Of a stretch of 64,000 bases of DNA, positions 5,832-64,000 are shown piece by piece. The DNA comes from Patescibacteria group bacterium. GTDB taxonomy: Bacteria > Patescibacteriota > JAUYIX01 > JBHPHK01. A model generated the notes under the pieces. The model saw only the letters and a program-made list of their open reading frames with translations, was not told where the DNA came from and ran no database searches. The stretch is taken from the NCBI GenBank assembly GCA_042569365.1, contig JBHPHK010000004.1, positions 6,113-70,112 on the forward strand, given 5' to 3'. Numbering within the stretch: position 1 is the first letter of the stretch; each line of letters opens with the position of its first letter. The position numbers and the translations under genes are program-made.

Positions 5832-6172
5832 ATTTTTGATCTTTTCAATAATGTGTAAATTTCTGCCTCAATCTCTTGATAGGTTTTCCCGGCAAAATCG
5901 CTGCGCACAACAATTATAAAGAGTAAGTTTGCCGGCAATTCATCAATTATGCTTTCTATAATAGAGCGGACCTGGCGTTTGATTCTATTCCTGTCCGTAG
6001 CTTTCTTCGCAACCTTTTTACTAACCACGATCGTGCCTCGGGGAGGGTATTCCACACCATCTTTTTCCCATGAAACATGAATTGTAGCATCCTTACTATG
6101 GAAACGGCGCCCTTCCTTGAATATACGGTCTATTTGGCGCTGTTTGCGTAATCTATTGTGACGTTTGAGCAT
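5816..6172 (-). CDS. rnpA: RNase P protein component
   Basis: 118 aa, basic, with the motif VSKKVAKKATDRNRIKRQVR. It lies directly downstream of rpmH. Confidence 0.85.
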   Translation of the reverse strand: MLKRHNRLRKQRQIDRIFKEGRRFHSKDATIHVSWEKDGVEYPPRGTIVVSKKVAKKATDRNRIKRQVRSIIESIIDELPANLLFIIVVRSDFAGKTYQEIEAEIYTLLKRSKIWPQT

Positions 6173-6610: not shown

Positions 6611-8032
6611 ATGGATCCACAAAAGACTTGGCAAGCCACACTGGGCGAGCTTGAGCTTTCTATTAGTAAAGCAAACTTCACTACATGGTTTCGTAATACA
6701 TTTATCATGGAATGGAATGATGAAGAGGTAGTTATCGGTGTTCCAAATGCATTTACTAAAGAGTGGCTGGAAAATAAGTATCACAAAGAGATTTTTCGCT
6801 CTATTAATAGCGTCGTCAACGGAACAGTCCGCCGTGTCCGCTATGAAATAGGAAGCCTGCGCAACGCAGAGCAACATGCCAACGTTTTAGTTAGCGCCCA
6901 AGAGAATCAAATGGGTGATTCTTACAATTCTAGCGATTCAGAATCCTCTACAACCCAACCTTTTGGAAACGTCAGCATCGAAACTACCATGCCGGGCGTC
7001 GATCGCAACACCAACCTAAACCCACGCTTCACTTTTGACGATTATGTAGTCGGGCCAAGTAACGAGCTAGCTCAAGCAGCTGCTCAGTCAGTTTCATTGA
7101 GTCCCGGCACAACATATAATCCTTTATTTATGTACGGCGCCGTGGGGATCGGCAAGACTCATTTGATGCACGCCATTGGAAACGAAATCGTAAAAAATTT
7201 CCCGGAAAGAAATATTTTATACGTCACATCTGAAGCTTTCACAAATGATTTTGTCGAATCCGTCCGCAACAAAACAATGGCGAGCTTCAAAGAACGCTTC
7301 CGTAACCTCGACCTTTTGATAGTTGATGATATTCAGTTCCTCTCAACCAAAGAACAGACCCGCGAAGAGTTTTTCCATACTTTCAACGCTATTACTAGCC
7401 ATGGCGGTCAGATCGTCATCAGCTCTGACCAGCCACCTAAGTCTATTCCTACTATTGAAGATCGTCTCCGCTCTCGTTTTGAAGGCGGCATGATCGTTGA
7501 TATTGGCATTCCAGAGCTCGAAACTCGCCTAGCCATCTTAAATAAGAAGGTTGCTGAGTCAGAATTAGAGTTTCCTGATGATGTCTTAGAATACGTGGCC
7601 CAAAACGTGCGCCAGAGCGTCAGAGAGCTTGAAGGCGTTCTCAACCGCATTATCGCTACCAGCCAGCTTAAAGGCATCCCACCAGCACTAGAAGACGCGA
7701 AGAACGTCCTAGCAACCGTAGCAGCCAGTCCTAAGAAGCGCGCCATTTCTCCAAAACGTATCCTTGAGATCGTTTCACAATTTTATGACGTTGACGTTGA
7801 TGTTATTAAAGGCAAGTGCCGTAAAAAGGAAATTGTCCGCCCTCGTCAAATTTCAATGTATCTTATGCGTGAAGAATCGCACACAAGCTATCCAACAATT
7901 GGACAAGAGCTTGGCAATAAAGACCACACAACCGCCATGCACGCTGTAGATAAGATCACAAGAAATCTGGAAGAAGATGAAGAACTGCGCCAAGAAATTG
8001 ATTTGATTAGACAGCGCCTTTACCTTCCGTAA
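6611..8032 (+). CDS. dnaA: chromosomal replication initiator DnaA
   Basis: It has the Walker A motif GAVGIGKTHL, an AAA+ core and the C-terminal DNA-binding helix (HTTAMHAVDKI). The track ORF starts at a TTG at 6593, and I prefer ATG 6611 (MDPQKTW). Confidence 0.95.
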   Translation: MDPQKTWQATLGELELSISKANFTTWFRNTFIMEWNDEEVVIGVPNAFTKEWLENKYHKEIFRSINSVVNGTVRRVRYEIGSLRNAEQHANVLVSAQENQMGDSYNSSDSESSTTQPFGNVSIETTMPGVDRNTNLNPRFTFDDYVVGPSNELAQAAAQSVSLSPGTTYNPLFMYGAVGIGKTHLMHAIGNEIVKNFPERNILYVTSEAFTNDFVESVRNKTMASFKERFRNLDLLIVDDIQFLSTKEQTREEFFHTFNAITSHGGQIVISSDQPPKSIPTIEDRLRSRFEGGMIVDIGIPELETRLAILNKKVAESELEFPDDVLEYVAQNVRQSVRELEGVLNRIIATSQLKGIPPALEDAKNVLATVAASPKKRAISPKRILEIVSQFYDVDVDVIKGKCRKKEIVRPRQISMYLMREESHTSYPTIGQELGNKDHTTAMHAVDKITRNLEEDEELRQEIDLIRQRLYLP

Positions 8033-54220: not shown

Positions 54221-56368
54221 ATGAATAAAAAACTTACCCAAATGAAATCCGACACAAGCATTGGCGAAGAAAACTGCCACGCTAAAGACTCACATTTAAT
54301 AGTACGATTCGCTTTGATAGACACCGTTGCTGCGGCTGTCTTATTGTTAGTGATTACGGGTGCATTGTTCTTGGTGCGCAATCAACCCGCGCCAGAAGTA
54401 AGCACCGTAGCTGAAACAAATGGTACTACTGCGCAAATAGGTAAGCCAATAGATCCGAGGGATCCGCCTGGCACTGGTGTTATACTTCAAGGAAAGATAG
54501 ATACAGCGTTACTTCTTGAACGCGTTAACGGCGCTCCCCTCAATCAGCATAATTATCCTCACACTGTTGAGGTCGGAGATCTAGTTCAATATCGTCTGGA
54601 CTATAGGGCTTTTGGTATAACTTTAGAAGCGCCAGTTGAAATAGCTTCAGCGTACAATCCTGGTTATTTACGCTTTGTCGGAATGTATGGCGACCATATT
54701 GGCCCAGATCAGCCAATTACCCAAGGTATCTTGCACTGGCCGGACGCTACTAGTGGTGCAGATATTCCAATGTTTGAAGTTAGAGTAATGAAGCCCATGT
54801 TTAGGGTAATCAAGGCAGGAACTAATCCAAATACAGATATTTCATTTCAGGCTACGGCTGATGCTACTGATGGTGAAACATATATTGATAATATAAAATA
54901 CTCTCCGTTAACTGTTATCAATATTCCACCGGCACCGTCCGTAACTGTTGACTCAAGCTCGCTTCTGACATCAACCTCGGTAGAGATCCAAGATCTATCT
55001 CGCTACCGCATCGCGGTTAAAAATACTGGAGCCATAAAACTAGAAGCACCAGTGGTTCTGCACGTGGCTTACAATCCTAAGATCTTCAAATATGTTGGGA
55101 CTGAAGGAGCGCTCTCCGCGTCTTCAGACCAGGACGGTACGATCATCTTTAATGATATTACCAGCGGCAAAGGTCTTGCGGCTGGAACAGGAGCATACAT
55201 TGGGTTGCGTTTGGTAGCAAAAACACCGGGAGCCTCTCCAAGTACAGACGTTCATGTCTATACTTCTGCGCGTGACGCTAGAAATCGTTTAGCGACTGAT
55301 CGTATGACATTAGCGGGCATCACAGTTGTTGCGCCGCCGCCGCCTCCTGCACCGGAACCGGAACCAGAGCCAGAGCTAACTCTGGCCCAACAATTGCAAG
55401 CATTCTTCACTCTTTCACCAGAGCAAGAAGGTGTAGTTAAGACTGTTGTCGCGCCGTCGACTGCGGTGATCAATGCGATCAACCTAGCCGCGGCCGCTAA
55501 TCCGCTCAATATCGGCTATCTCTTCCTCTTGCTCTTCACTGAGCCTTTGCAGCTTCTCTTCCGTCGCCGCCGCGGATCTTACGGCGTCATCTATAACGCG
55601 TTGACGAAGCATCCGCTTTCGCTTGTTATGATCCGTCTTGTTGAAGCTAAATCTGGCCGCGTCGTGAAGACAGCCGTTTCAGATACTAAAGGACGCTTCT
55701 CAATGACAGGCCCTCCAGGTCAATACCGCATTCAGATTTCTAAGGCCGGATTCGTTTTCCCAAGTCAATCTGTTCCAGGTACGCGTGATTCAGGCTTTGC
55801 TAATGTCTATCACGGCAACACCTTCGAATTGACTGAAGAAAATCCGAACATAGTAGCTAGTATTCCACTTGATCCTCCAAAGGCAGAGCGCACCCGCCAA
55901 GCACTCATGCGCAGCAGAGTTTATAATGTGATCCGCAACGTAATTGCCTGGGTCGGTATGGCTGTTGCTGTCATTCTCGTGATCTTGGCACCGAGCCCAT
56001 TGACGATCGGACTGCTTGTAGCACACGTCATCTTCTTCTTCCTCTTCCGCTTCTTTGCTCGTATGCAAGCTCCTCCAACTTGGGGCGCAGTCTACGACTT
56101 CCTAACCGGCAAACCAATCCGCGGTGCTGTGGTTCGCATCTACGACACTCAGTATGAGCGTCTGTTAGACTCGAGAGTCACAAATCGTCGCGGACAGTAT
56201 GGCTTCATAGTCGGGCAGAACGAGTACTTGCTTGACGCTGCGAAGGAAGGATACAAGTTCCCGGCACCAGAGAAGAAAAAACCTCACGACTATCTCGGAG
56301 GTAAATTTACTCCTCGTCGCGGTTCGGTCAGGATGAATATCCCGATCAGTCCCAGTAAGGGCAAGTAA
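54221..56368 (+). CDS. large envelope protein, paralogue A
   Basis: 715 aa. The order is an N-terminal TM helix, two beta-rich repeat domains, a PEPEPEPE linker and a TM block. Two CarboxypepD_reg-like modules follow (VMIRLVEAKSGRVVKTAVSDTKGRFSM..; GAVVRIYDTQYERLLDSRVTNRRGQYGF). Confidence 0.75.
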   Translation: MNKKLTQMKSDTSIGEENCHAKDSHLIVRFALIDTVAAAVLLLVITGALFLVRNQPAPEVSTVAETNGTTAQIGKPIDPRDPPGTGVILQGKIDTALLLERVNGAPLNQHNYPHTVEVGDLVQYRLDYRAFGITLEAPVEIASAYNPGYLRFVGMYGDHIGPDQPITQGILHWPDATSGADIPMFEVRVMKPMFRVIKAGTNPNTDISFQATADATDGETYIDNIKYSPLTVINIPPAPSVTVDSSSLLTSTSVEIQDLSRYRIAVKNTGAIKLEAPVVLHVAYNPKIFKYVGTEGALSASSDQDGTIIFNDITSGKGLAAGTGAYIGLRLVAKTPGASPSTDVHVYTSARDARNRLATDRMTLAGITVVAPPPPPAPEPEPEPELTLAQQLQAFFTLSPEQEGVVKTVVAPSTAVINAINLAAAANPLNIGYLFLLLFTEPLQLLFRRRRGSYGVIYNALTKHPLSLVMIRLVEAKSGRVVKTAVSDTKGRFSMTGPPGQYRIQISKAGFVFPSQSVPGTRDSGFANVYHGNTFELTEENPNIVASIPLDPPKAERTRQALMRSRVYNVIRNVIAWVGMAVAVILVILAPSPLTIGLLVAHVIFFFLFRFFARMQAPPTWGAVYDFLTGKPIRGAVVRIYDTQYERLLDSRVTNRRGQYGFIVGQNEYLLDAAKEGYKFPAPEKKKPHDYLGGKFTPRRGSVRMNIPISPSKGK

Positions 56369-56624: not shown

Positions 56625-58820
56625 ATGGCTCAAAAACCGGCAGATAAGAAAACGGCTGAAGACCCAGCCGAACAAAATTATAGAAAGAAGGAACCGCACA
56701 TGATTTTGCGGTTTGCTTTGATTGATACAGTTGTTGCGGCCGTATTGCTTTTGCTGATCACCGGTGTGCTTTTCATGGTACGTAACTGGCAAATTAACGT
56801 TGAAGAGACCAATTCATTTTCAATAGTCCAGTCAAATCATGTTACAGCACAGGTACCAATTTATATTGATCCTCGTGATAGACATTCTCCTCCTGTAGCT
56901 CCTCTCCCGCCTGCAATTATCATGGCGGTAAACGTTGAGCGCGTGAACGGTATCGCAATCAACCAAAGCGCTGACCCTATTCAAGTAGAGGTCGGTGATT
57001 TGGTGCAATATCGAGTTGACTATAAACCGTGGAGGATAAACTTAATCGCTCCTTTTGATATGGTTCAGTCTTATGATCCCGGTTTTTTGCAATATGTAGG
57101 TATGTATCAAGATATTAATGGAGCCGACCAGCCTGTTACTCAAGGCTTAATACATTGGACAGATGTCAGTAATGGTGAAGATGTGTATTCTACTGAGACT
57201 AGAACAGTAAAACCTGAATATCGAGTGATCCGTGCCGGCATAAGGCCAAACACTAATTTATCGACTGAGTTGTCTTTTGAGTTTGAGAGCGAGACTATTT
57301 ACGGCACTAGTATTTTTGACAAATTAAAAGTAGATAACCCGCCTCCGCTGCCAGTTATCACAGCTTCCAGAAGTTCGCTGAATACAGCAGCTACCATAGA
57401 CGAAAACGAACTCGTGCGTGCACGTATCTCCATTGCCAATACGGGAGAGATTGCAATTGCGGCACCTGTTAAGGTGACTGTTACATATAATGCAAATTAT
57501 CTAAACTACATTGGCACGGAAACAACTACGGGCGCGTTATCTGTTTCATCTGATAATGTAGCGGCAGCGCAGGTCACATCAGGTGGCGCGTTAGTTTGGA
57601 GTGATGCGACGAATGGACATAGCATCGCACCGGGTACGTCAGCCTTCTTAGGAGTGCGCTTCAAAGCTGTTAAGCCTGGTACTCGTCCCAATACAAATAT
57701 TAACATTGCTGTCGCAGCCAAAGACACTCGCGACCGTTCAGCGACAGCTGCTTTTACAATCGCAGGCTTAGTAGTCAACGCGTTGCCAATACCGGAGCCA
57801 GAACCTGAACCAGAGCCAGTAATTAGGCAGGCTCTGCAAACTATTCAAGACTTTTTCACACTAACCCCGGAACATGAAACCGTGGTTAGTACGGTGATCG
57901 CGCCGTCAACTGCGATCATCAATGCGATCAACCTAGCGGCGGCTGCAAATCCGCTCAATATCGGCTATCTTTTCCTATTACTCTTTACCGAGCCGCTTCA
58001 GTTGATCTTGCGGCGCCGTCGCGGATCTTTCAGTGTTGTTTATAATGCGCTAACCAAACATCCTCTTTCACTTGTTATGGTTCGTCTTGTTGAGGCAGAG
58101 TCTGGCCGCATCATGAAGACTGCCGTTTCAGATCCAAAAGGGCGCTTCTCACTTTCCGGTCCTCCAGGTAAATATCGCATCCAGATCACAAAATCAGGCT
58201 TTATTTTTCCAACCAAGACTATAAAGGGCATACGCGATGCCGGTTTTACAAATATTTATCACGGAGACATTTTCGAGCTCACGGCTGATAAGCCAGCGGT
58301 GACCGCTAGTGTTCCGATTGATCCGCCAAAGGCAGACCTAACACATAAAGCGGTCTGGCGCAGTAATCTATATAATAGTATCCGCAACATTATCGCCTGG
58401 GCCGGTATTGTCGTGGCGATGGTCTTGGCCTTAATCGCACCGAGCGCTTTAACGATCGGACTTTTGGTCGCGCACGTCGCTTTCTTCTTCCTCTTCCGAT
58501 ATTTTGCCCGCCTCGAAGCTCCGCCAACCTGGGGGATGGTTTACAATTTCATAACAGGCAAACCAGTACGCGGCGCTTTGGTGCGCATTTATGATGCACA
58601 GTACGAACGCCTGCTTGATTCGAAAGTAACTAATCGTCGCGGACGCTACGGTTTCTTAGTCGGACAGAACGAATACTTGCTTGACGCTGCGAAAGTAGGA
58701 TACCAATTCCCGGCTCCAGAAAAGAAAAAATCCCATGACTATCTGGGAGGCAAGTTTACGCCACACGATTCTGTCAAATTAGACATTCCGATCAAACGTC
58801 AGGCTCGACAGAAGAAGTAA
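56625..58820 (+). CDS. large envelope protein, paralogue B
   Basis: 731 aa with the same architecture as 54221..56368. The C-terminal 330 aa are nearly collinear and highly similar, and the N-terminal ectodomain has diverged. Confidence 0.75.
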   Translation: MAQKPADKKTAEDPAEQNYRKKEPHMILRFALIDTVVAAVLLLLITGVLFMVRNWQINVEETNSFSIVQSNHVTAQVPIYIDPRDRHSPPVAPLPPAIIMAVNVERVNGIAINQSADPIQVEVGDLVQYRVDYKPWRINLIAPFDMVQSYDPGFLQYVGMYQDINGADQPVTQGLIHWTDVSNGEDVYSTETRTVKPEYRVIRAGIRPNTNLSTELSFEFESETIYGTSIFDKLKVDNPPPLPVITASRSSLNTAATIDENELVRARISIANTGEIAIAAPVKVTVTYNANYLNYIGTETTTGALSVSSDNVAAAQVTSGGALVWSDATNGHSIAPGTSAFLGVRFKAVKPGTRPNTNINIAVAAKDTRDRSATAAFTIAGLVVNALPIPEPEPEPEPVIRQALQTIQDFFTLTPEHETVVSTVIAPSTAIINAINLAAAANPLNIGYLFLLLFTEPLQLILRRRRGSFSVVYNALTKHPLSLVMVRLVEAESGRIMKTAVSDPKGRFSLSGPPGKYRIQITKSGFIFPTKTIKGIRDAGFTNIYHGDIFELTADKPAVTASVPIDPPKADLTHKAVWRSNLYNSIRNIIAWAGIVVAMVLALIAPSALTIGLLVAHVAFFFLFRYFARLEAPPTWGMVYNFITGKPVRGALVRIYDAQYERLLDSKVTNRRGRYGFLVGQNEYLLDAAKVGYQFPAPEKKKSHDYLGGKFTPHDSVKLDIPIKRQARQKK

Positions 58821-58860
58821 AACATGCTAATTATGCGCTATAGAGCTTTCTATGGCCATA

Positions 58861-58889
58861 TTGACAAAAGTCCCTTTCAGATCTATAGT
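58861..58889 (+). promoter_or_regulatory. sigma70-type promoter (TTGACA-17-TATAGT)
   Basis: It has exact hexamers and lies 104 nt upstream of the ATP-grasp ATG. Confidence 0.5.
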
Positions 58890-58959
58890 ATAACTACTTA
58901 TTTCTTTAGCGCTAAAACTTATGACGCTTTCAGCAATTTGGCAAGACTAATTATGAAAT

Positions 58960-58992
58960 AAGGTCGGCTAATAACCGACCTTATTTTTATTT
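58960..58992 (+). terminator. hairpin + U-run immediately before the ATP-grasp start (attenuator or terminator of the upstream gene)
   Basis: AAGGTCGG-CTAATAA-CCGACCTT is followed by ATTTTTATTT, which abuts ATG 58993. Confidence 0.5.
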
Positions 58993-59943
58993 ATGAATCA
59001 AATTATTATAGGCTGCCCATATGATAGGATCATTGATCTTAAAAGTGCCCTTAAGACTATCGCGAAGGGAAGTGTTATCGTAGATGTGAACGACGTGTCC
59101 GCAGTAGACTTCGATGCTATTTACGTTGGATCCGATTTCAAGCCTATGCGTATTTCAGATTTTAACGCGTCTTTCATACGTTACCCGTACGACTTAATTC
59201 CTCCACACACCAGTAACTATTCCCGTCGAGAGAAGACAGAGCTTCTCAAAACACTCGCATTGCTTTTTTCTGATGTGTCGATTAATAAATTTTCTGAGAG
59301 CCTTCGGGCCAGGAATAGAATTTACTCTCTAAAGGTTGCTGCCAGTTGCGGGCTTAATATTCCTAGTTCACTTATAGTCAGTCGTAATATTGGTAATTTC
59401 AAGACAGACTTATTTTCTGACAAAGTCGTAACGAAAAGTTTAGGGAATTGTTATTATGCTAAACGACTCAATAACGAAGAAGAATTGACCAAGAAGCAAT
59501 TGTTTTTTACCAAAGATGGCAATGACTCGGCCTATATTTATCCTGCCCATGCAATAAAAAACGCTGAAGAACTTAACGCGCACATAGAAAGTTTTCAAGT
59601 ATCCTTTCTCCAGAATTGTGTAAAGGGTAAGGAGTTTCGTATTTATCTTATCGGTGAAAAAATCTTTTTCTACAGTCGCGAGAAAGTTGACGGCATAGAT
59701 AAGAGTGCAGGCAAAAAAGTGCCCATAGATTCGCCTATAGACAACAAAGAAAAAGTAAAACTATTTACGCTACTAAAGAAGCTTAAACTTCAATATTTAA
59801 ATATCGATGCTGTCATAGATTCGGCGACTAAAAAGTTTATTGTCATCGACATTAATCCTTTTGGTTCTTTGCCGGACTACGACACTGATCCCGAGCCGAC
59901 TCTCGAATTAGCCAGGCTTATTTTAAAAGACAAGAAAAAATAA
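58993..59943 (+). CDS. ATP-grasp ligase (RimK / peptide-ligase-like), AT-rich
   Basis: 316 aa. The patterns NRIYSLKVAASCGLNIPSSLIV, VVTKSLG, EFRIYLIGEKIFFYSRE and YLNIDAVIDSATKKFIVIDINPFGS resemble ATP-grasp central and C-terminal lobes. The call is by motif only. Confidence 0.6.
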   Translation: MNQIIIGCPYDRIIDLKSALKTIAKGSVIVDVNDVSAVDFDAIYVGSDFKPMRISDFNASFIRYPYDLIPPHTSNYSRREKTELLKTLALLFSDVSINKFSESLRARNRIYSLKVAASCGLNIPSSLIVSRNIGNFKTDLFSDKVVTKSLGNCYYAKRLNNEEELTKKQLFFTKDGNDSAYIYPAHAIKNAEELNAHIESFQVSFLQNCVKGKEFRIYLIGEKIFFYSREKVDGIDKSAGKKVPIDSPIDNKEKVKLFTLLKKLKLQYLNIDAVIDSATKKFIVIDINPFGSLPDYDTDPEPTLELARLILKDKKK

Positions 59944-60172
59944 AACATAAAAAAGTCGCACTCTCCCAACAGATGTCGGTACAGTTTTTAGTGTTTAAAT
60001 CTTAATCGTACAAGAAACAATTTATTTATCTGATTTTTTTGTTCAGAGGTTTTTAAAAATCCTTTATCTTAATTTCAACAGACTATTGTGGTAAACTAAC
60101 AACAGGTTATGCACTAACGCATCTTGTGTTAGTTGTACTAGATATCAATAATTCACATAACTATACTATACT

Positions 60173-60415
60173 ATGAAATTTACTTCTTTCGGAATCATGC
60201 AATTGCCTGATGGATCATATCTGCATGCACCAGGCTTTACTAAGAAGATCGTTCAAAAACTTCCCATGCCAGCCGCTGCTATTAAGGGAACTTTCACAGG
60301 AGAATGGGGGAAGTCTGATGACCTGCAAGTAGAAAAAGGGATGAGAATCCTAGGGGTCAATAGATTGGGCAGAGAATTGGGACTTGATCTAGAACGAAAG
60401 ACAGGGACTTTCTAA
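60173..60415 (+). CDS. small protein A (80 aa), member of a local 3-gene family
   Basis: The ORF begins MKFTSFGIMQLPDGSYLHAPGF...GEWGKSDDLQVEKGMRILG. TATACT lies 5 nt before the ATG, so the mRNA may be leaderless. It is collinear with protein C. Confidence 0.5.
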   Translation: MKFTSFGIMQLPDGSYLHAPGFTKKIVQKLPMPAAAIKGTFTGEWGKSDDLQVEKGMRILGVNRLGRELGLDLERKTGTF

Positions 60416-60498
60416 GGTAAATTCTGTCATCTTCGCTTGAGATTAATCTCATATAAACACGAGAAAAAAGCTGCGCCGAACAGAGAGGGGCAGTTTTT

Positions 60499-60573
60499 TG
60501 GTAGTCCCTACGGGAATCGAACCCGTATTTCCACCTTGAAAGAGTGGCGTCCTAACCGTTAGACGAAGGGACC
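60499..60573 (-). tRNA. tRNA-Glu (anticodon UUC), CCA encoded
   Basis: The reverse strand reads GGTCCCTTCGTCTAACGGTTAGGACGCCACTCTTTCAAGGTGGAAATACGGGTTCGATTCCCGTAGGGACTACCA. It folds as a cloverleaf with anticodon loop CTTTCAA and T-loop GGTTCGATTCC, and closely resembles bacterial tRNA-Glu. Confidence 0.9.
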
Positions 60574-60611
60574 AAAATAATCTTAAAGCAGCAGGCTTAG
60601 CTGCTCCGCCT

Positions 60612-60640
60612 ATGCTACTAGTTGCCGATGAGTTTGTCAA
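60612..60640 (-). promoter_or_regulatory. sigma70-type promoter of tRNA-Glu (TTGACA-17-TAGCAT)
   Basis: It reads on the minus strand and lies about 38 nt upstream of the tRNA 5' end. Confidence 0.55.
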
Positions 60641-60709
60641 CATGAACACACTGTCTATTTAAAGTATAATAAAAACAGAATCAACCAACTATAAAGGAGG
60701 TGTTAAGTA

Positions 60710-60877
60710 ATGCCAATTAAACCAATAAGAGGATGGTTCGGATTTCTTCCACTGCCGAACGGCAATTCAATAACTTTCCCGCTTAAGCCAAAGGCTGCAG
60801 AGGCTCTGCTGGAAGTTCTCAAAAGACATAGTTTACCTTTTGATGTTAGAAGATCTGTTGGTCCACCTAAGATTTAG
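60710..60877 (+). CDS. small protein B (55 aa), member of a local 3-gene family
   Basis: AAAGGAGG lies 9 nt before the ATG. The ORF is MPIKPIRGWFGFLPLPNGNSITFPLKPKAAEALLEVLKRHSLPFDVRRSVGPPKI. A terminator follows at 60892..60916 (ACGCCGG-CTCGT-CCGGCGT+TTTT). It is below the track cutoff. Confidence 0.55.
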   Translation: MPIKPIRGWFGFLPLPNGNSITFPLKPKAAEALLEVLKRHSLPFDVRRSVGPPKI

Positions 60878-60964
60878 TGTTGGATAACAAAAACGCCGGC
60901 TCGTCCGGCGTTTTTAGGTAGTGAAATAATTTTCGCGTAGTTAAGTCTTTTTTCCTAAAAAACC

Positions 60965-60993
60965 TTTACAGAACACAAAATCCATGTTACAAT
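60965..60993 (+). promoter_or_regulatory. sigma70-type promoter (TTTACA-17-TACAAT)
   Basis: It lies 61 nt upstream of ATG 61055. Confidence 0.5.
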
Positions 60994-61054
60994 CGGGTTG
61001 TAATAGTTGAGTGAAAGCTCGATTATTCGAATTAATTAGATTAACTAAACAACT

Positions 61055-61318
61055 ATGGCAGAACAATTCAGTGTTTTACTGAATGGGGCAGGTAAGTTTG
61101 TTGCTGCGCCGATATCTGATCAGGCGTATGCAAACTATCCTCATGACAAAGCAAGATTTGAAGTTGATTCGATAGATCCTGGAGTTTGGGGTTCTGGAGA
61201 TACTCTTAAAGACGTATTATCTAGGATCCTGGAGGAAGGAAATCCTGTTGAGCTTAAGTGGATTGAGGGACCTGAGGGTTGGAGAAGGGACTTTGATGGC
61301 ATGATCACACAACCTTAA
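61055..61318 (+). CDS. small protein C (87 aa), member of a local 3-gene family
   Basis: The ORF begins MAEQFSVLLNGAGKFVAAPISD...PGVWGSGDTLKDVLSRILEEG. A terminator hairpin follows at 61345..61378. Confidence 0.55.
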   Translation: MAEQFSVLLNGAGKFVAAPISDQAYANYPHDKARFEVDSIDPGVWGSGDTLKDVLSRILEEGNPVELKWIEGPEGWRRDFDGMITQP

Positions 61319-61445
61319 GAGTAGTTCTTCTTACCTATATAAATAAATAACAGGCCTCGTGCCTGTTATTTATTTTGTTGATTATTTGCATTTCTGCTTT
61401 CAGGCTGATCATTGTATAATAGCGTTAACACTCTAGAGACTATTT

Positions 61446-62444
61446 ATGCCCGAAAATCTGCTTCAGCAGCCAGTCATTCAGATTGATAATGTTACCAAAA
61501 CCTTTCCCGGTAAAGGCTGGTTTAAGCGTCGTGCGAAAGATGTCTTAGCTATCGACCAGGTCTCGTTTGATGTCGCCCACAACGAGATTTTTGGTATTAT
61601 TGGTCCGAACGGCTCGGGCAAGACTACGCTGATCAAGATGATCACGTCTTTTATCTATCAGGATGCGGGGACGATTTGGGTGAATGGAAGAGATACATTG
61701 GAGGACTTCGAGGCACTCAAAGATCAACTCGGTTTTATCATTAGTGAAGAGAGATCTTTCTTCTTTCGCCTTTCGGGTCGGCAAAACTTAGAATACTACG
61801 GCATGCTCCAAAAGATTCCCAGAAAAGAGCTGCATAAGAAAATAGATGAACTACTTGAACGCCTAGAGCTTGCGCCCGCCGCCGATAAGCGCTATCAGGA
61901 ATATTCGACCGGTATGCGCCGTAAGCTTGGCGTAGCACGCGGGCTTCTGGTCGAGCGTCCAATATACCTTTTAGATGAACCGACTACGGCGATTGACCCT
62001 GTTTCAACAGTTACAATCGAAAACCTTATCAGAGAGCTGCGCGATGCCGGACACACAATCTTGTTTTCTAGTCATGATATGCATCAGGTCGAGCGCTTAG
62101 CAGATCGTGTTGGTATTTTAAATAAAGGTCGCCTCATTGGGTTAGGTGAGCCCAGCGAGCTGATCAAGAGGATTCTTTCTCAGTACGACTATTTCATTAT
62201 GGCCATGCTTGATCGGCCGATCACAAAAGACCTTATCCAACAAATTGGTCAGCTAGAAAATATCAAGCATATCGACAGTCCGGATGCTGAACATAAATCT
62301 CTGCGCGTAGTGACCAATAAGCCAAGTAGTGTCGTTGCGCCACTGATTCATATTTTAGGCAAGCAAGAAGACTTGAATGTCATAAACTTCGGCGTGCGTC
62401 AGCCAAGTCTAGAAGAAGCCTTTATTAAAATATCGGGAGTATAA
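61446..62444 (+). CDS. ABC transporter ATP-binding protein (ABC-2/DrrA-like)
   Basis: It has the Walker A motif GPNGSGKTT, the signature YSTGMRRKLG and the Walker B motif IYLLDEPTTAID. An extended -10 (TGTATAAT) lies upstream. Confidence 0.9.
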   Translation: MPENLLQQPVIQIDNVTKTFPGKGWFKRRAKDVLAIDQVSFDVAHNEIFGIIGPNGSGKTTLIKMITSFIYQDAGTIWVNGRDTLEDFEALKDQLGFIISEERSFFFRLSGRQNLEYYGMLQKIPRKELHKKIDELLERLELAPAADKRYQEYSTGMRRKLGVARGLLVERPIYLLDEPTTAIDPVSTVTIENLIRELRDAGHTILFSSHDMHQVERLADRVGILNKGRLIGLGEPSELIKRILSQYDYFIMAMLDRPITKDLIQQIGQLENIKHIDSPDAEHKSLRVVTNKPSSVVAPLIHILGKQEDLNVINFGVRQPSLEEAFIKISGV

Positions 62445-62449
62445 ACTCT

Positions 62450-63286
62450 ATGTTAAAGCGATTCAAACAAGCATTCATGCACTGGTTTTACCGGCTTTGG
62501 GTTTATCTGAAGAGGTCTTTCATAATCACGGCATCTTATAAGACGCAGTTTGTTTTGTCTTTCGTAAATATCTTTCTATCATTCTTGTCTTTCTACTTTA
62601 TAGCTACTTTCTTGGATACGGGCGATAATCCGTTTTTAGTTCAATATGGAGGAAGCTATATCCAGTTTATGGTGGTAGGTGTTATTTTTGCGAGTTTCCT
62701 ATCTTTTGCCTTTTCTTTTATGATGTCGGCCGTGTCTGAGGGAGTAAGCAAGGGAACACTTGAATATCTATTGCTTTCAAAAGTCGGTTTGATCCAGATA
62801 ACGATTATGACCAGTCTATGGAGCATGCTTTTCTTGGTGATCAACACAGCACTGACTCTGACTATCGTCAAGTTCATTTTAGGAGTGACATTTTTCTATA
62901 ATATCTGGCTGATAGCACTTGTTTTGCTTTTGGCTATGTTTGCGATTACGGGGATCGGGATGATCTCGGCGGGTATTATCGTCGTGATTAAGAGCGGTGA
63001 TCCGATTAGTTTTGTTTTCGGAGCTTTGACTGGCTTGCTTTCGGGAGTTGCTTTCCCAGTTGAGATCTTGCCGGCATTCTTACGCGAGATTGGTGAGATA
63101 TTACCAAATACACATGCTCTGACGGCTTTGCGTGAGGTGATGATCAACAATGCTTCGCTATGGGATATCAAAGAGGAGCTAGCTTTCTTATTTATTTCTA
63201 GTGTGATCACTTTAGCGATCGGATATTTTGCTTTTATCTATGGCTTCCACCGAGCGCGCCAAAAAGGTACACTTGCATTACGTTAA
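62450..63286 (+). CDS. ABC-2 type transporter permease
   Basis: 278 aa with 6 hydrophobic helices. It starts 6 nt after the ATPase gene. Confidence 0.8.
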   Translation: MLKRFKQAFMHWFYRLWVYLKRSFIITASYKTQFVLSFVNIFLSFLSFYFIATFLDTGDNPFLVQYGGSYIQFMVVGVIFASFLSFAFSFMMSAVSEGVSKGTLEYLLLSKVGLIQITIMTSLWSMLFLVINTALTLTIVKFILGVTFFYNIWLIALVLLLAMFAITGIGMISAGIIVVIKSGDPISFVFGALTGLLSGVAFPVEILPAFLREIGEILPNTHALTALREVMINNASLWDIKEELAFLFISSVITLAIGYFAFIYGFHRARQKGTLALR

Positions 63287-63298
63287 TACTGAATTTCA

Positions 63299-64000
63299 AT
63301 GGCAATAAGATCACAAGAACAGAACAGTCAACTGCCGCCACAGCCTATGACGGAAGAAATACCAGCAGTGAGGCCTGATATGCCTAAGAGTGGCCAAAGA
63401 TCAATGCAGATATTGATTGCCACTCTTAAGCGTCCTTGGTATATAGTTTTTTTGATTGCCATTTTATTGACAGCAGGAATCATGCTTTCGACTATGCCGC
63501 GTCCTACCCGGACTTTGTATGTGGATTCACGCGAGACAAGAGAGGAATTTGTCTTGACGGGCAGTGAAGACAAGCCTTTTAAGACTATTCAAGCGGCGAT
63601 TGAGAAAGCAGTCGATGGTGATATCGTTCATATTCGTGCCGGAATGTATCAGGAAAATCTTTATGTGGACGGCGTGAATATTACAATTAAGGGTGAAGGT
63701 GTCGAGGAAACTACTATCGTTTCTGTGAATGCAAAACAAGAGGGAGAGGAAGAGGTAGCGGTGGCTCCGGAAGAGTCTGCAGAGACTTTAGGTCGTGGAC
63801 CAGAAGCAGCTGAAAAAACTGCGCCTTATGAAAATAACGATGTTGTGTCTTACGTGAATGGAGCAACAGGCTTCATTCAGAACCTGTCTATAATTGGCGG
63901 GAGTGCTTTGAAAAGTTTTATTGCCGATGAGGAACGAACAGATGAAGAGTACGAAGAGATAGCGTTGCACGAAAGTGCAATTTCAGCTTGGGAAGCCTCA
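63299..64000 (+). CDS. membrane-anchored right-handed beta-helix (DUF1565/pectate-lyase-fold-like) protein, 3' end outside window
   Basis: This open-ended frame is not in the track. It begins MAIRSQEQNSQLPPQP, then has a TM helix (WYIVFLIAILLTAGIML), then KPFKTIQAAIEKAVDGDIVHIRAGMYQENLYV, which is typical of beta-helix proteins. Confidence 0.55.
   Translation, partial: MAIRSQEQNSQLPPQPMTEEIPAVRPDMPKSGQRSMQILIATLKRPWYIVFLIAILLTAGIMLSTMPRPTRTLYVDSRETREEFVLTGSEDKPFKTIQAAIEKAVDGDIVHIRAGMYQENLYVDGVNITIKGEGVEETTIVSVNAKQEGEEEVAVAPEESAETLGRGPEAAEKTAPYENNDVVSYVNGATGFIQNLSIIGGSALKSFIADEERTDEEYEEIALHESAISAWEAS

Follow-up and report, generated by a model that had tools for sequence, protein, structure and literature searches.

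A micro-ORF adjoining an ATP-grasp ligase gene looks like part of an undescribed minimal peptide-plus-ligase system

Towards the end of the 64 000 nt stretch of DNA analysed here (the window), a gene for an ATP-grasp enzyme is followed by three small ORFs, a tRNA gene and an ABC-2 operon, which raises the question of which of these genes belong together functionally. An earlier note on this DNA combined the ligase, the small proteins A, B and C as its substrates, and the ABC-2 pair as exporter into one graspetide-type or protein-tagging cluster. The positions it gave for the ATP-grasp ORF, the three small ORFs, the minus-strand tRNA-Glu and the ABC-2 pair were all confirmed, and separate promoter-like and terminator-like sites were indeed seen around the small ORFs. 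What it overlooked was a micro-ORF situated between a promoter and a hairpin, directly 5' of the ligase start. The features of the region are as follows:

58796–60489, no strand: strain-specific AT-rich islet with promoter, micro-ORF, hairpin, ligase and ORF A; absent from the closest relative
58861–58889, plus strand: sigma-70-type promoter, TTGACA-17-TATAGT
58921–58950, plus strand: micro-ORF of nine codons plus stop, encoding MTLSAIWQD; candidate precursor or substrate peptide of the ligase; unannotated in the public record
58955–58987, plus strand: terminator-like hairpin with a 13 bp stem, 7-nt loop and T-rich tail
58993–59943, plus strand: ATP-grasp ORF, 316 aa (NCBI ACFL1U_01500, annotated 'hypothetical protein'); assigned to a small clade that is sister to the graspetide synthetases
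60173–60415, plus strand: ORF A, 80 aa; orphan passenger of the islet
60499–60573, minus strand: tRNA-Glu(UUC); conserved landmark with variable inserts on both sides, outside the module
60647–60941, no strand: second strain-specific insert, holding ORF B; outside the module
60710–60877, within this insert: ORF B, 55 aa, with its own promoter, Shine–Dalgarno sequence (SD) and terminator
61055–61318, plus strand: ORF C, 87 aa; outside the module
61446–63286, plus strand: ABC-2 operon, comprising a DrrA-like ABC ATPase (61446–62444) and an ABC-2 permease (62450–63286); outside the module

Comparison with the closest relative (L011, ~75 % identical) revealed a mosaic. This relative retained the upstream gene, tRNA-Glu, ORF C and the ABC-2 operon, and lacked both the ligase with ORF A (1.7 kb) and ORF B (0.3 kb). 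The islet at 58796–60489 (1.69 kb), which lies between the 3' ends of a 731-aa gene and of tRNA-Glu, was swapped for about 53 bp and the second insert for 65 bp, with the tRNA-Glu region between them (60490–60646) displaying 87 % identity. GC content was 37.4 % in the islet and 43.8 % in the window as a whole, and 99.8 % of stretches of the same size had a higher value than the islet; the AT-richness described previously is real but localized. ORF A itself had a GC content of 43 %. The islet and the module it carries may have been gained in this genome or lost in L011.

The three small ORFs had also been described as one family, which sequence comparison did not bear out. BLASTP aligned A with B across 15 residues (E=0.006) and A with C at E=0.97, and gave no match between B and C, whilst Smith–Waterman shuffles returned P values of 0.013, 0.086 and 0.59 for A–B, A–C and B–C, respectively. 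A homologue search of 5.8 billion proteins with ORF A returned itself alone and ORF C had one weak, syntenic homologue; A and C are lineage orphans. Codon statistics were coding-like for A and C and ambiguous for B, despite the strong SD and terminator of the latter. ORF A was modelled from one sequence as input with an uninformative pLDDT of 50. ORF C proved fast-evolving and lineage-specific; its promoter and 5'UTR hairpin are conserved, and it is syntenic with the ABC-2 operon. Neither the ligase nor any of A, B and C matched the PADLOC or PHROGs models of anti-phage defence and phage protein families.

We inspected the DNA of 17 ligase loci, 16 of them independent (window included; L005 and L013 are one organism), drawn from about 45 clusters of the ligase family. 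Counterparts of A, B, C, the ABC ATPase and the permease were found at none of the 15 other independent ligase loci. Some features do favour the single cluster that had been proposed: the ligase is of RiPP-maturase type, ORF A lies inside the same indel, and A has a T/D-rich stretch together with a loose 'PAAAI' match to Phhx(1,2)h, a degenerate leader motif of CPR graspetides (PMC8939145). Against this, L011 lacks the ligase, A and B yet keeps ORF C and the ABC-2 operon, the small ORFs are mutually non-homologous and form separate transcription units, A–C match no RiPP precursor HMM, and the DrrAB-like ABC pair has no peptidase domain, nor was any C39-peptidase ABC exporter co-conserved with the ligase across its loci. 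The lack of co-occurrence, which for A–C the note itself had named as grounds for rejection, largely refutes the idea, which we regard as very improbable. Rather than an operon, the proposed cluster is an accidental mosaic around a tRNA gene, and the module at 58861–59943 is unrelated to its neighbours A, B, C, the tRNA and the ABC-2 pair.

The assignment of the ligase itself to the RiPP maturases fared better. Its best NCBIfam matches were GRASP_SAV_5884, MvdD and MvdC; scores for the graspetide synthetase families (TIGR04184/04185/04187) were 33.4, 31.8 and 30.1 bits, falling far short of the curated cut-offs of 350, 475 and 425, and the RimK family HMM TIGR00768 gave no match at E≤1. PDB profile matches comprised the microviridin ligase 5ig9 (E=6e-10), AMdnB, CdnC and PsnB. 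An AF2 model (pLDDT 91) searched with Foldseek placed MdnC, CdnC, AMdnB and PsnB at the top (best E=8e-17, TM 0.71; TM range to graspetide synthetases 0.61–0.71), followed by RimK, PruB and ArgX, and hhalign against graspetide-type relatives gave E=1e-39 over 300 columns. Graspetide synthetases were thus nearest by HMM, PDB profile, predicted fold and profile–profile alignment; RimK and LysX/ArgX came next. The ligase is not a housekeeping ATP-grasp enzyme. These results show that over its full length it is homologous to ATP-grasp enzymes that modify peptides, with a full-length ATP-grasp fold nearest that of MdnC/CdnC/PsnB as judged by fold and remote homology. Its clade is discrete (at least 110 bits inside, at most 72 bits to everything else), patchily distributed and small (about 45 clusters among 1.8 billion representatives), and RiPP maturase HMMs were matched by all 60 of its next-nearest relatives. 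The window ligase preserves all 30 invariant residues, a D-x-N motif among them, and RYPYDLI and GNC are invariant motifs of the clade's own. Judged by sequence and predicted structure, this is a tiny sister clade of the graspetide synthetases. The ligase neighbours in L015 were a resolvase, ArdA, MerR and RND.

The feature that does accompany the ligase is the micro-ORF. An ORF of 6–10 codons ending in [I/V]-W-[K/Q/H]-D-stop adjoined the ligase gene in 17/17 loci, and the pattern (ATH or GTN)-TGG-NNN-GAY-stop occurred 17 times in 519 kb searched on both strands, every time beside the ligase, with no occurrence in L011, L017 or L018, all of which lack the ligase. In 16 loci an in-frame ATG lay 6–9 codons before the stop, the remaining one having a GTG at 10 codons; SDs 5' of the micro-ORF were of AAGGAGG type in L003, L008 and L010 and GGAGG in L014. 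Differences between loci fell at third codon positions and in the choice of TAA, TAG or TGA, and in L004 and L008 stop codons close the overlapping +1 frame immediately ahead of the motif. Co-conservation of micro-ORF and ligase spanned distant phyla wherever DNA of the clade was examined. Within the peptide, only the C-terminal Asp and the Trp two residues earlier were invariant. No nucleophile was conserved across the 17 loci, whether Lys, Ser or Thr: a Lys at −4, giving KxxxD spacing, was present in 10 of the 17 peptides, whilst those of the window, L020, L007 and L019 have no Lys. No ligase alignment column covaried with the variable peptide positions.

The arrangement around the micro-ORF was similarly recurrent. 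The promoter at 58861–58889 has 11/12 consensus matches, ends 31 nt 5' of the micro-ORF ATG and outscores every other site in the 90 nt preceding that codon, with a score reached by 1 % of shuffles; it would drive the micro-ORF and, via read-through, the ligase. The window hairpin (dG about −17 kcal/mol) is separated by 4 nt from the micro-ORF stop and by 5 nt from the ligase ATG. A comparable hairpin followed the stop by 0–11 nt in 15/17 loci, 14 with a T-rich tail; in 14/17 it lay 0–10 nt past the stop with a dG of −10 to −23 kcal/mol, and in L003 it lay 11 nt past the stop and had no T tail. Such an upstream ORF and terminator have the usual look of a regulatory leader, and the micro-ORF could accordingly encode a cis-acting arrest peptide, a sensor and not a substrate: by pausing at W-x-D-stop, a ribosome would mask the terminator's 5' arm so that transcription continues into the ligase gene, and the ligase would act on another target, for example an antibiotic or ribosomal protein, in the manner of an inducible resistance gene. 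Terminators combined with short leader peptides regulate the erm, cat and ABC-F genes, and TnaC relies on conserved W and D residues. Consistent with such regulation, the micro-ORF is upstream and on the same strand as the ligase in 16/17 loci, at least 14 have the hairpin before the ligase ATG with no space for a second promoter, a hairpin 0–10 nt past the stop is reachable by a terminating ribosome, and the patchy, mobile-looking spread of the ligase (the L015 neighbourhood, the AT-rich islet here) resembles that of resistance genes. In L005, however, the micro-ORF (MAIWKD) and its hairpin are on the opposite strand, convergent with and downstream of a ligase–oxygenase operon, and no hairpin or anything similar lies 5' of the ligase; therefore, in this one organism (L005/L013), the peptide gene is an independent unit and not a cis leader. 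Additionally, L015 has no hairpin between micro-ORF and ligase, the L014 terminator is about 85 nt from the micro-ORF, the relatives of the ligase are peptide modifiers, and chance alone would have to account for an invariant C-terminal Asp beside an enzyme that activates carboxylates. We consider regulation by a leader peptide unlikely.

We instead favour, at a probability of about 0.5, the micro-peptide as the substrate. On this evidence, which is that of sequence, the functional unit would be 58861–59943, a leaderless micro-peptide plus an ATP-grasp ligase activating its invariant C-terminal Asp, and the pair looks like an undescribed minimal peptide-plus-ligase system. The leaky hairpin would halt most transcription, leaving the short peptide transcript in excess, and read-through would give a little ligase, as in mccA–mccB. 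The ligase may hold the peptide without a leader via its I-W-x-D tail and phosphorylate a carboxylate of the terminal Asp, and the resulting acyl-phosphate could be captured either by an intramolecular amine or hydroxyl, such as the Lys of KxxxD, or, as with RimK/LysX, by an amine or amino acid from outside the peptide. The general idea of the earlier note, that the ligase works on a short substrate encoded by a gene, is probably correct, with the micro-peptide in place of A–C and without the exporter. An unlinked cellular protein or small molecule could be modified instead, as by RimK or L-amino-acid ligases, with the peptide a trans activator, inhibitor or partner; the strong fold matches include RimK, ArgX and PruB as well, a conserved leader peptide, exporter or protease is lacking, and graspetide synthetases dependent on a partner protein exist (PMC13097080). 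Yet the peptide's sole invariants, a C-terminal acid and a Trp two residues before it, resemble LysW tail recognition (PMC10433800), and 6-aa peptides are unlikely structural partners. This, too, we think improbable.

Among known systems, graspetide synthetases (MdnC/MdnB, CdnC, PsnB, AMdnB) share with the micro-peptide module an ATP-grasp enzyme beside a small gene for a peptide with an acidic residue, and the micro-ORF corresponds to their adjacent, co-conserved precursor gene. The peptides here, of 6–10 aa, show neither an N-terminal leader plus core with Thr/Ser/Lys donors and Asp/Glu acceptors nor a repeated T/S/K...D/E core nor a conserved nucleophile; characterized graspetide synthetases require a leader, and the peptidase-ABC exporter of graspetide systems is missing from the module. 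Microcin C has a 7-aa MccA and an intergenic terminator before mccB (PMC4231749), which sets a high ratio of peptide to enzyme transcript (PMC4231749, PMC6495379). It likewise places a tiny gene first, modifies an invariant C-terminal residue and has a terminator before the enzyme gene, but MccB is a ThiF/E1-like adenylyltransferase acting on a C-terminal Asn; with an ATP-grasp enzyme and Asp here, the layout alone is shared and the window module does not belong to this family. The mcc operon further includes genes for export and immunity, which this module lacks, and no exporter, protease or immunity gene was co-conserved across the ligase loci. Biarylitides (bytA–bytO) pair one modifying enzyme with a 5-aa precursor that has no leader and whose gene is missed by annotation (10.1101/2020.07.21.214643; PMC13417212), a similarly minimal two-gene RiPP layout, but use a cytochrome P450 to form aryl cross-links, with no ATP-grasp enzyme or C-terminal acid chemistry.

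The LysX/ArgX ATP-grasp enzymes recognize the C-terminal EDWGE of LysW (PMC10433800), and in LysW/ArgW a RimK-class ATP-grasp enzyme joins an amine to a C-terminal acidic carboxylate, EDWGE-COOH being comparable to IWxD-COOH with Trp two residues upstream; ArgX–LysW was among the top fold matches of the window ligase. LysW differs as a zinc-binding protein of roughly 54 aa in a multi-enzyme pathway, with no pathway genes conserved here, and the window pair falls outside this family, its 9-aa peptide ending in IWQD without Cys and its 316-aa ligase lacking GSWGR (motifs as in PMC10433800). In the corallotide gene cluster, the graspetide synthetase CorB is joined by CorC, a divergent 2OG-Fe(II) oxygenase acting on KxxxD (KIVAD; PMC13097080). 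A 2OG-Fe(II)-oxygenase-like gene, absent from the window, overlapped the ligase gene in L002, L003, L005 and L010 (4/16 independent loci, window included), where the enzyme probably tailors the product. The CorA precursor is roughly 22 kDa with five repeats, and Lys is missing from the window peptide (SAIWQD); the combination of an ATP-grasp enzyme with a divergent PF13640-like oxygenase is nonetheless shared, and KIVAD can be compared with the KIWKD found in nine loci and the KIWQD found in two.

All the components that the earlier note had placed in this part of the Patescibacteria (CPR) MAG were present: the ATP-grasp ligase, three small ORFs (A, B and C; 80, 55 and 87 aa), tRNA-Glu and an ABC pair. 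Promoter-like and terminator-like sites of their own, as that note had described, were also found at the small ORFs.

Features of the window
58993-59943, ATP-grasp ORF (the ligase, 316 aa), 100 % identical to NCBI ACFL1U_01500
60173-60415, ORF A (NCBI: hypothetical protein)
60499-60573, minus strand, tRNA-Glu(UUC)
60710-60877, ORF B (NCBI: hypothetical protein)
61055-61318, ORF C (NCBI: hypothetical protein)
61446-62444, DrrA-like ABC ATPase
62450-63286, ABC-2 permease

The suggestion that A, B and C form one family did not survive BLASTP (A-C, E=0.97; A-B, E=0.006 across 15 residues; B-C, no match) or Smith-Waterman shuffle tests on the pairs (A-B, p=0.013; A-C, p=0.086; B-C, p=0.59). The sole match of A among 5.8 billion proteins was itself, a profile of C matched C plus one syntenic 89-aa protein and nothing else, and searches of phage, plasmid and IMG/VR collections with B returned nothing. 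PADLOC and PHROGs returned nothing for the ligase, A, B or C, and an Rfam scan of 58500-64000 returned the tRNA alone. Codon statistics indicated that A and C are coding; B was ambiguous, yet has a canonical Shine-Dalgarno (SD) sequence and a terminator. A single-sequence AlphaFold model of A reached a pLDDT of 50, too low to be informative.

The window was aligned to L011, a 4.2-kb Logan contig with ~75 % identical DNA.

Segments of the window aligned to L011
58617-58795, 3' end of the upstream 731-aa gene
60490-60646, tRNA-Glu and its upstream region (87 %)
60942-61046, promoter and 5'UTR of C (80 %)
61392-63999, ABC-2 operon and the next gene

Missing from L011 were 58796-60489, which holds the ligase and A (~53 bp in its place), and 60647-60941, which holds B (65 bp in its place). 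The ligase and A are therefore carried by a strain-specific islet that borders on the tRNA gene at its 3' end, B is a second insert, and C and the ABC-2 operon are conserved backbone. The GC content of 58796-60489 is 37.4 %, below 99.8 % of equal-sized windows. Its flanks showed no convincing direct repeats or att-like sites. Judged by alignment, the block is a mosaic and not a cluster. A metagenome scan with the permease gave relatives at 26 % identity only and thus added no close relative of the locus to L011.

Several observations concern the surroundings of the islet. Directly upstream of it are two tandem paralogous membrane proteins (54221-56368, 715 aa; 56625-58820, 731 aa), which contain a PEPEPEPE linker besides carboxypeptidase-regulatory-like and beta-sandwich domains. 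Between window 60990-61054 and L011 508-571, identity in the promoter and 5'UTR of C is 80 %, against only 24 % for the C proteins; the UTR forms a hairpin of 14 bp, the pairing of which is preserved by each of five one-sided changes between the window and L011 and broken by none, and it may be a conserved regulatory RNA element. The gene 3' of the permease (window 63299-64000; L011 2837-4234) is pectinesterase/right-handed beta-helix-like and kept in both genomes. Because this gene is conserved next to it, the ABC-2 pair may serve a cell-surface or polysaccharide role and not peptide export.

For the ligase itself, Pfam gave no significant match, and the best NCBIfam matches were three ATP-grasp RiPP maturase models, far under their cut-offs. 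A profile of 41 homologues searched against the PDB retrieved the 5ig9 microviridin ligase, AMdnB, CdnC, the 5ig8 ligase and PsnB, and the AlphaFold model (pLDDT 91) matched MdnC, CdnC, AMdnB and PsnB first (TM 0.61-0.71), then RimK, PruB and ArgX. When 1.84 billion representatives were screened in full with HMMER, only ~45 members scored 110 bits or more, and the scores then fell sharply to 72 bits or less. The next 60 proteins beyond this clade all matched GRASP_SAV_5884, MvdC and MvdD models, and hhalign of the clade against them gave E = 1e-39 (300 columns). The clade has 30 invariant residues, among them RYPYDLI, K148, GNC, D286-x-N288 and the arginines R63, R79, R107 and R109, and all are intact in the window ligase. 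Taken together, the HMM, PDB-profile, fold and hhalign results place the ligase in a sister clade of the graspetide synthetases that is small and discrete and has a horizontally scattered distribution; the RiPP-type classification thus held, and the ligase is not a housekeeping enzyme. Searches by tblastn against plasmids and phages, plus IMG/VR scans, returned nothing, and the taxa of the clade are not mentioned in the supplements of a graspetide phylogenomics paper.

DNA around ligase homologues was compared at 19 loci (handles within L001-L021), which collapse to 15 independent loci because L005 equals L013 and L015 equals L016. The sample covered Saccharibacteria, Uhrbacteria, other Patescibacteria, Cloacimonadota, Flavivirga, Cyclobacteriaceae, Candidatus Thiodiazotropha, an 'Acidobacteriaceae' MAG and marine metagenomes. 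None of the 15 encodes a relative of the small proteins A-C, of the ABC ATPase or of the permease, so the single cluster of ligase, small proteins and exporter is not co-conserved elsewhere, an outcome that the earlier note had named as one that would make its claim fail. The visible small ORFs by the ligase are red herrings; the earlier note erred in most of its grouping, but its pointer to a real ligase-based module was correct. The sole recurrent protein-coding neighbour was a gene of 180-200 aa overlapping the ligase 3' end at four loci (L002 1695-2270, L003 6932-7522, L005 6899-7501, L010 6902-7438), the product of which has an HxD...H signature and weakly matches 2OG-Fe(II) oxygenases (PF13640/PF03171); no such partner was detectable anywhere in the window. 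Radical SAM/SPASM genes occurred at three loci (L001, weakly, L008 and L014), were mutually non-orthologous and were lacking in the window, so the association was discarded, as was tRNA adjacency (~4/17 loci, not clearly above chance). At L014 (3618-9232) the ligase homologue sits amid three radical SAM/SPASM genes and adjoins a 32-aa Cys-rich ORF (6062-6160, MKIKVIKRQKKANVKVSMGSGVSGACRSQCSC), which looks like a separate sactipeptide/ranthipeptide-type precursor.

BLAST found no conserved ORF of at least 18 aa beside the ligase, a cut-off that hid a shorter gene. This micro-ORF came to light when the 70 nt 5' of every ligase start were folded to account for the promoter-terminator-ATG order of the window. 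The same arrangement recurred nearly everywhere among the ligase loci, preceded by a conserved 15-nt string that, read in frame, is the 3' end of the micro-ORF.

Micro-ORF peptides
Window, 58921-58950, MTLSAIWQD
L020, MTYSAIWQD
L012, MKGAIWQD
L007, MAIWQD
L006, MVYSKIWQD
L002, MNKIWQD
L019, MRISRIWHD
L001, MKIWKD
L004, MANKIWKD
L009, M(TM)EKIWKD
L021, MNRKIWKD
L003, MYRKIWKD
L008, MCCKIWKD
L010, MINKVWKD
L014, MAIWKD
L005, MAIWKD
L015, GTG start, MKRRKKIWKD

Both strands of 519 kb together contained 17 instances of the pattern (ATH|GTN)TGG-NNN-GAY-stop, all of them beside a ligase. Differences fall at third codon positions (ATT/ATC, CAA/CAG, GAC/GAT), in the K/Q/H residue and among three stop codons, and SD sequences precede the ATG (AAGGAGG type in L003, L008 and L010; GGAGG in L014). 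The +1 frame through the motif (NL[AE]RL) was rejected, having inconsistent starts and, in L004 and L008, stops right before the motif. On these grounds the micro-ORF is predicted to be a translated gene, and from the sequence comparison we hold its conservation and association with the ligase with high confidence. A gene that explains an 'orphan' ligase is invisible to gene callers, a lesson for annotation. At 14 loci the micro-ORF stop is followed after 0-10 nt by a hairpin (-10 to -23 kcal/mol) that has a T-rich tail; the hairpin of L003 begins 11 nt after the stop and has no T tail. The window has a strong promoter consensus 5' of the micro-ORF, but in most other loci the match did not reach significance. 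Most inspected ligase genes have no recognisable SD (window 58988-58992; equivalents in L001-L021), and in most loci, including gammaproteobacterial L003, the ligase ATG lies ~3-30 nt past the terminator T-tract.

The order micro-ORF, hairpin, ligase fits both a pure attenuator, with the micro-ORF encoding a regulatory leader peptide, and a RiPP-type substrate gene. At L005 (duplicate L013), however, the micro-ORF and hairpin directly follow the ligase-oxygenase operon and are on the other strand, and nothing like them was found 5' of the ligase. This arrangement suggests that the hairpin travels with the peptide gene and that the gene is kept where cis action is impossible, and it therefore separates the leader from the substrate model. 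Since, in addition, the invariant residue of the peptide is a C-terminal Asp, the ligase belongs to a carboxylate-activating family and its relatives all modify peptides, we consider a pure attenuator unlikely and favour a trans-acting substrate, at roughly even odds. For such a substrate the hairpin would be a leaky terminator after the precursor gene, a RiPP-type layout; one lies between mccA and mccB (PMC4231749).

We infer both the substrate role and its chemistry. Cyclisation of the I-W-x-D peptide is one possible reaction: Lys at -4 (KxxxD spacing, shared with KIVAD of corallotide; PMC13097080) occurs in 10/17 peptides and is absent from that of the window. Variation at peptide positions -1 and -4 does not follow the enzyme tree, and no column of the enzyme alignment co-varies with either. 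Intermolecular ligation to the C-terminal Asp would be compatible with all peptides; LysX ligates on the EDWGE tail of LysW (PMC10433800), and the RimK reaction is likewise intermolecular. Alternatively, the peptide could be the smallest known carrier or scaffold, to which an amine or amino acid is joined before further tailoring, e.g. by the 2OG oxygenase. Our boldest reading, with a probability of about 0.4, is an undescribed class of minimal leaderless ribosomal peptide system, in which 6-10 residues ending I-W-x-D would have their C-terminal Asp derivatised by a dedicated ATP-grasp enzyme, and horizontal transfer would have carried the module into Patescibacteria, Bacteroidota, Cloacimonadota, Gammaproteobacteria and an Acidobacteriaceae-labelled MAG.

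Graspetide systems share the ancestry of the enzyme, but the ligase scores below curated HMM cut-offs and the peptide does not have a leader plus core architecture. More than 20,000 graspetides are predicted by RODEO (PMC13097080), and CPR branches are described in which precursors could not be aligned or have escaped detection (PMC8939145). Microcin C (7 aa) and biarylitides (5 aa) resemble the module in precursor size, missing annotation and operon design, although the ligase is not of the MccB type. C-terminal carrier systems share an acidic C-terminus with Trp at -2, but the zinc-binding LysW and the GSWGR motif of LysX have no match in the module. An incomplete coverage of the literature on IWKD/IWQD-type motifs and minimal or leaderless ATP-grasp RiPPs yielded nothing relevant and no IWxD micro-ORF, and the two-part module of micro-ORF and ligase is real and apparently undescribed.

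If the ligase does act on the micro-ORF peptide, the pair would be the first ATP-grasp system whose leaderless substrate has <10 residues and, with microcin C and biarylitides, among the smallest genetically encoded natural-product systems, extending graspetide-type chemistry to a C-terminal Asp recognition tag. The compact pair (an 18-30-nt gene and one 0.95-kb enzyme gene) would be easy to reconstitute and could serve C-terminal peptide ligation or cyclisation. For Patescibacteria, the module is an accessory trait on a tRNA-adjacent islet, missing from the closest relative found. Elsewhere, modules lie near tRNA genes or mobility/resistance genes (L012 2762-2833; L001 416-2594; L004 8313-8385; L015 572-4359): tRNA-Gln ends 113 nt 5' of the micro-ORF in L012, an integrase is nearby in L001, and resolvase, ArdA, MerR and RND efflux genes in L015. 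Such neighbours are consistent with horizontal spread, the tRNA association not being statistically established. The Uhrbacteria homologue at L007 (6001-6941) is broken, with a stop at 6690 and similarity again from 6834, either as a pseudogene or through an error in the assembly, whereas the micro-ORF and hairpin beside it are intact.
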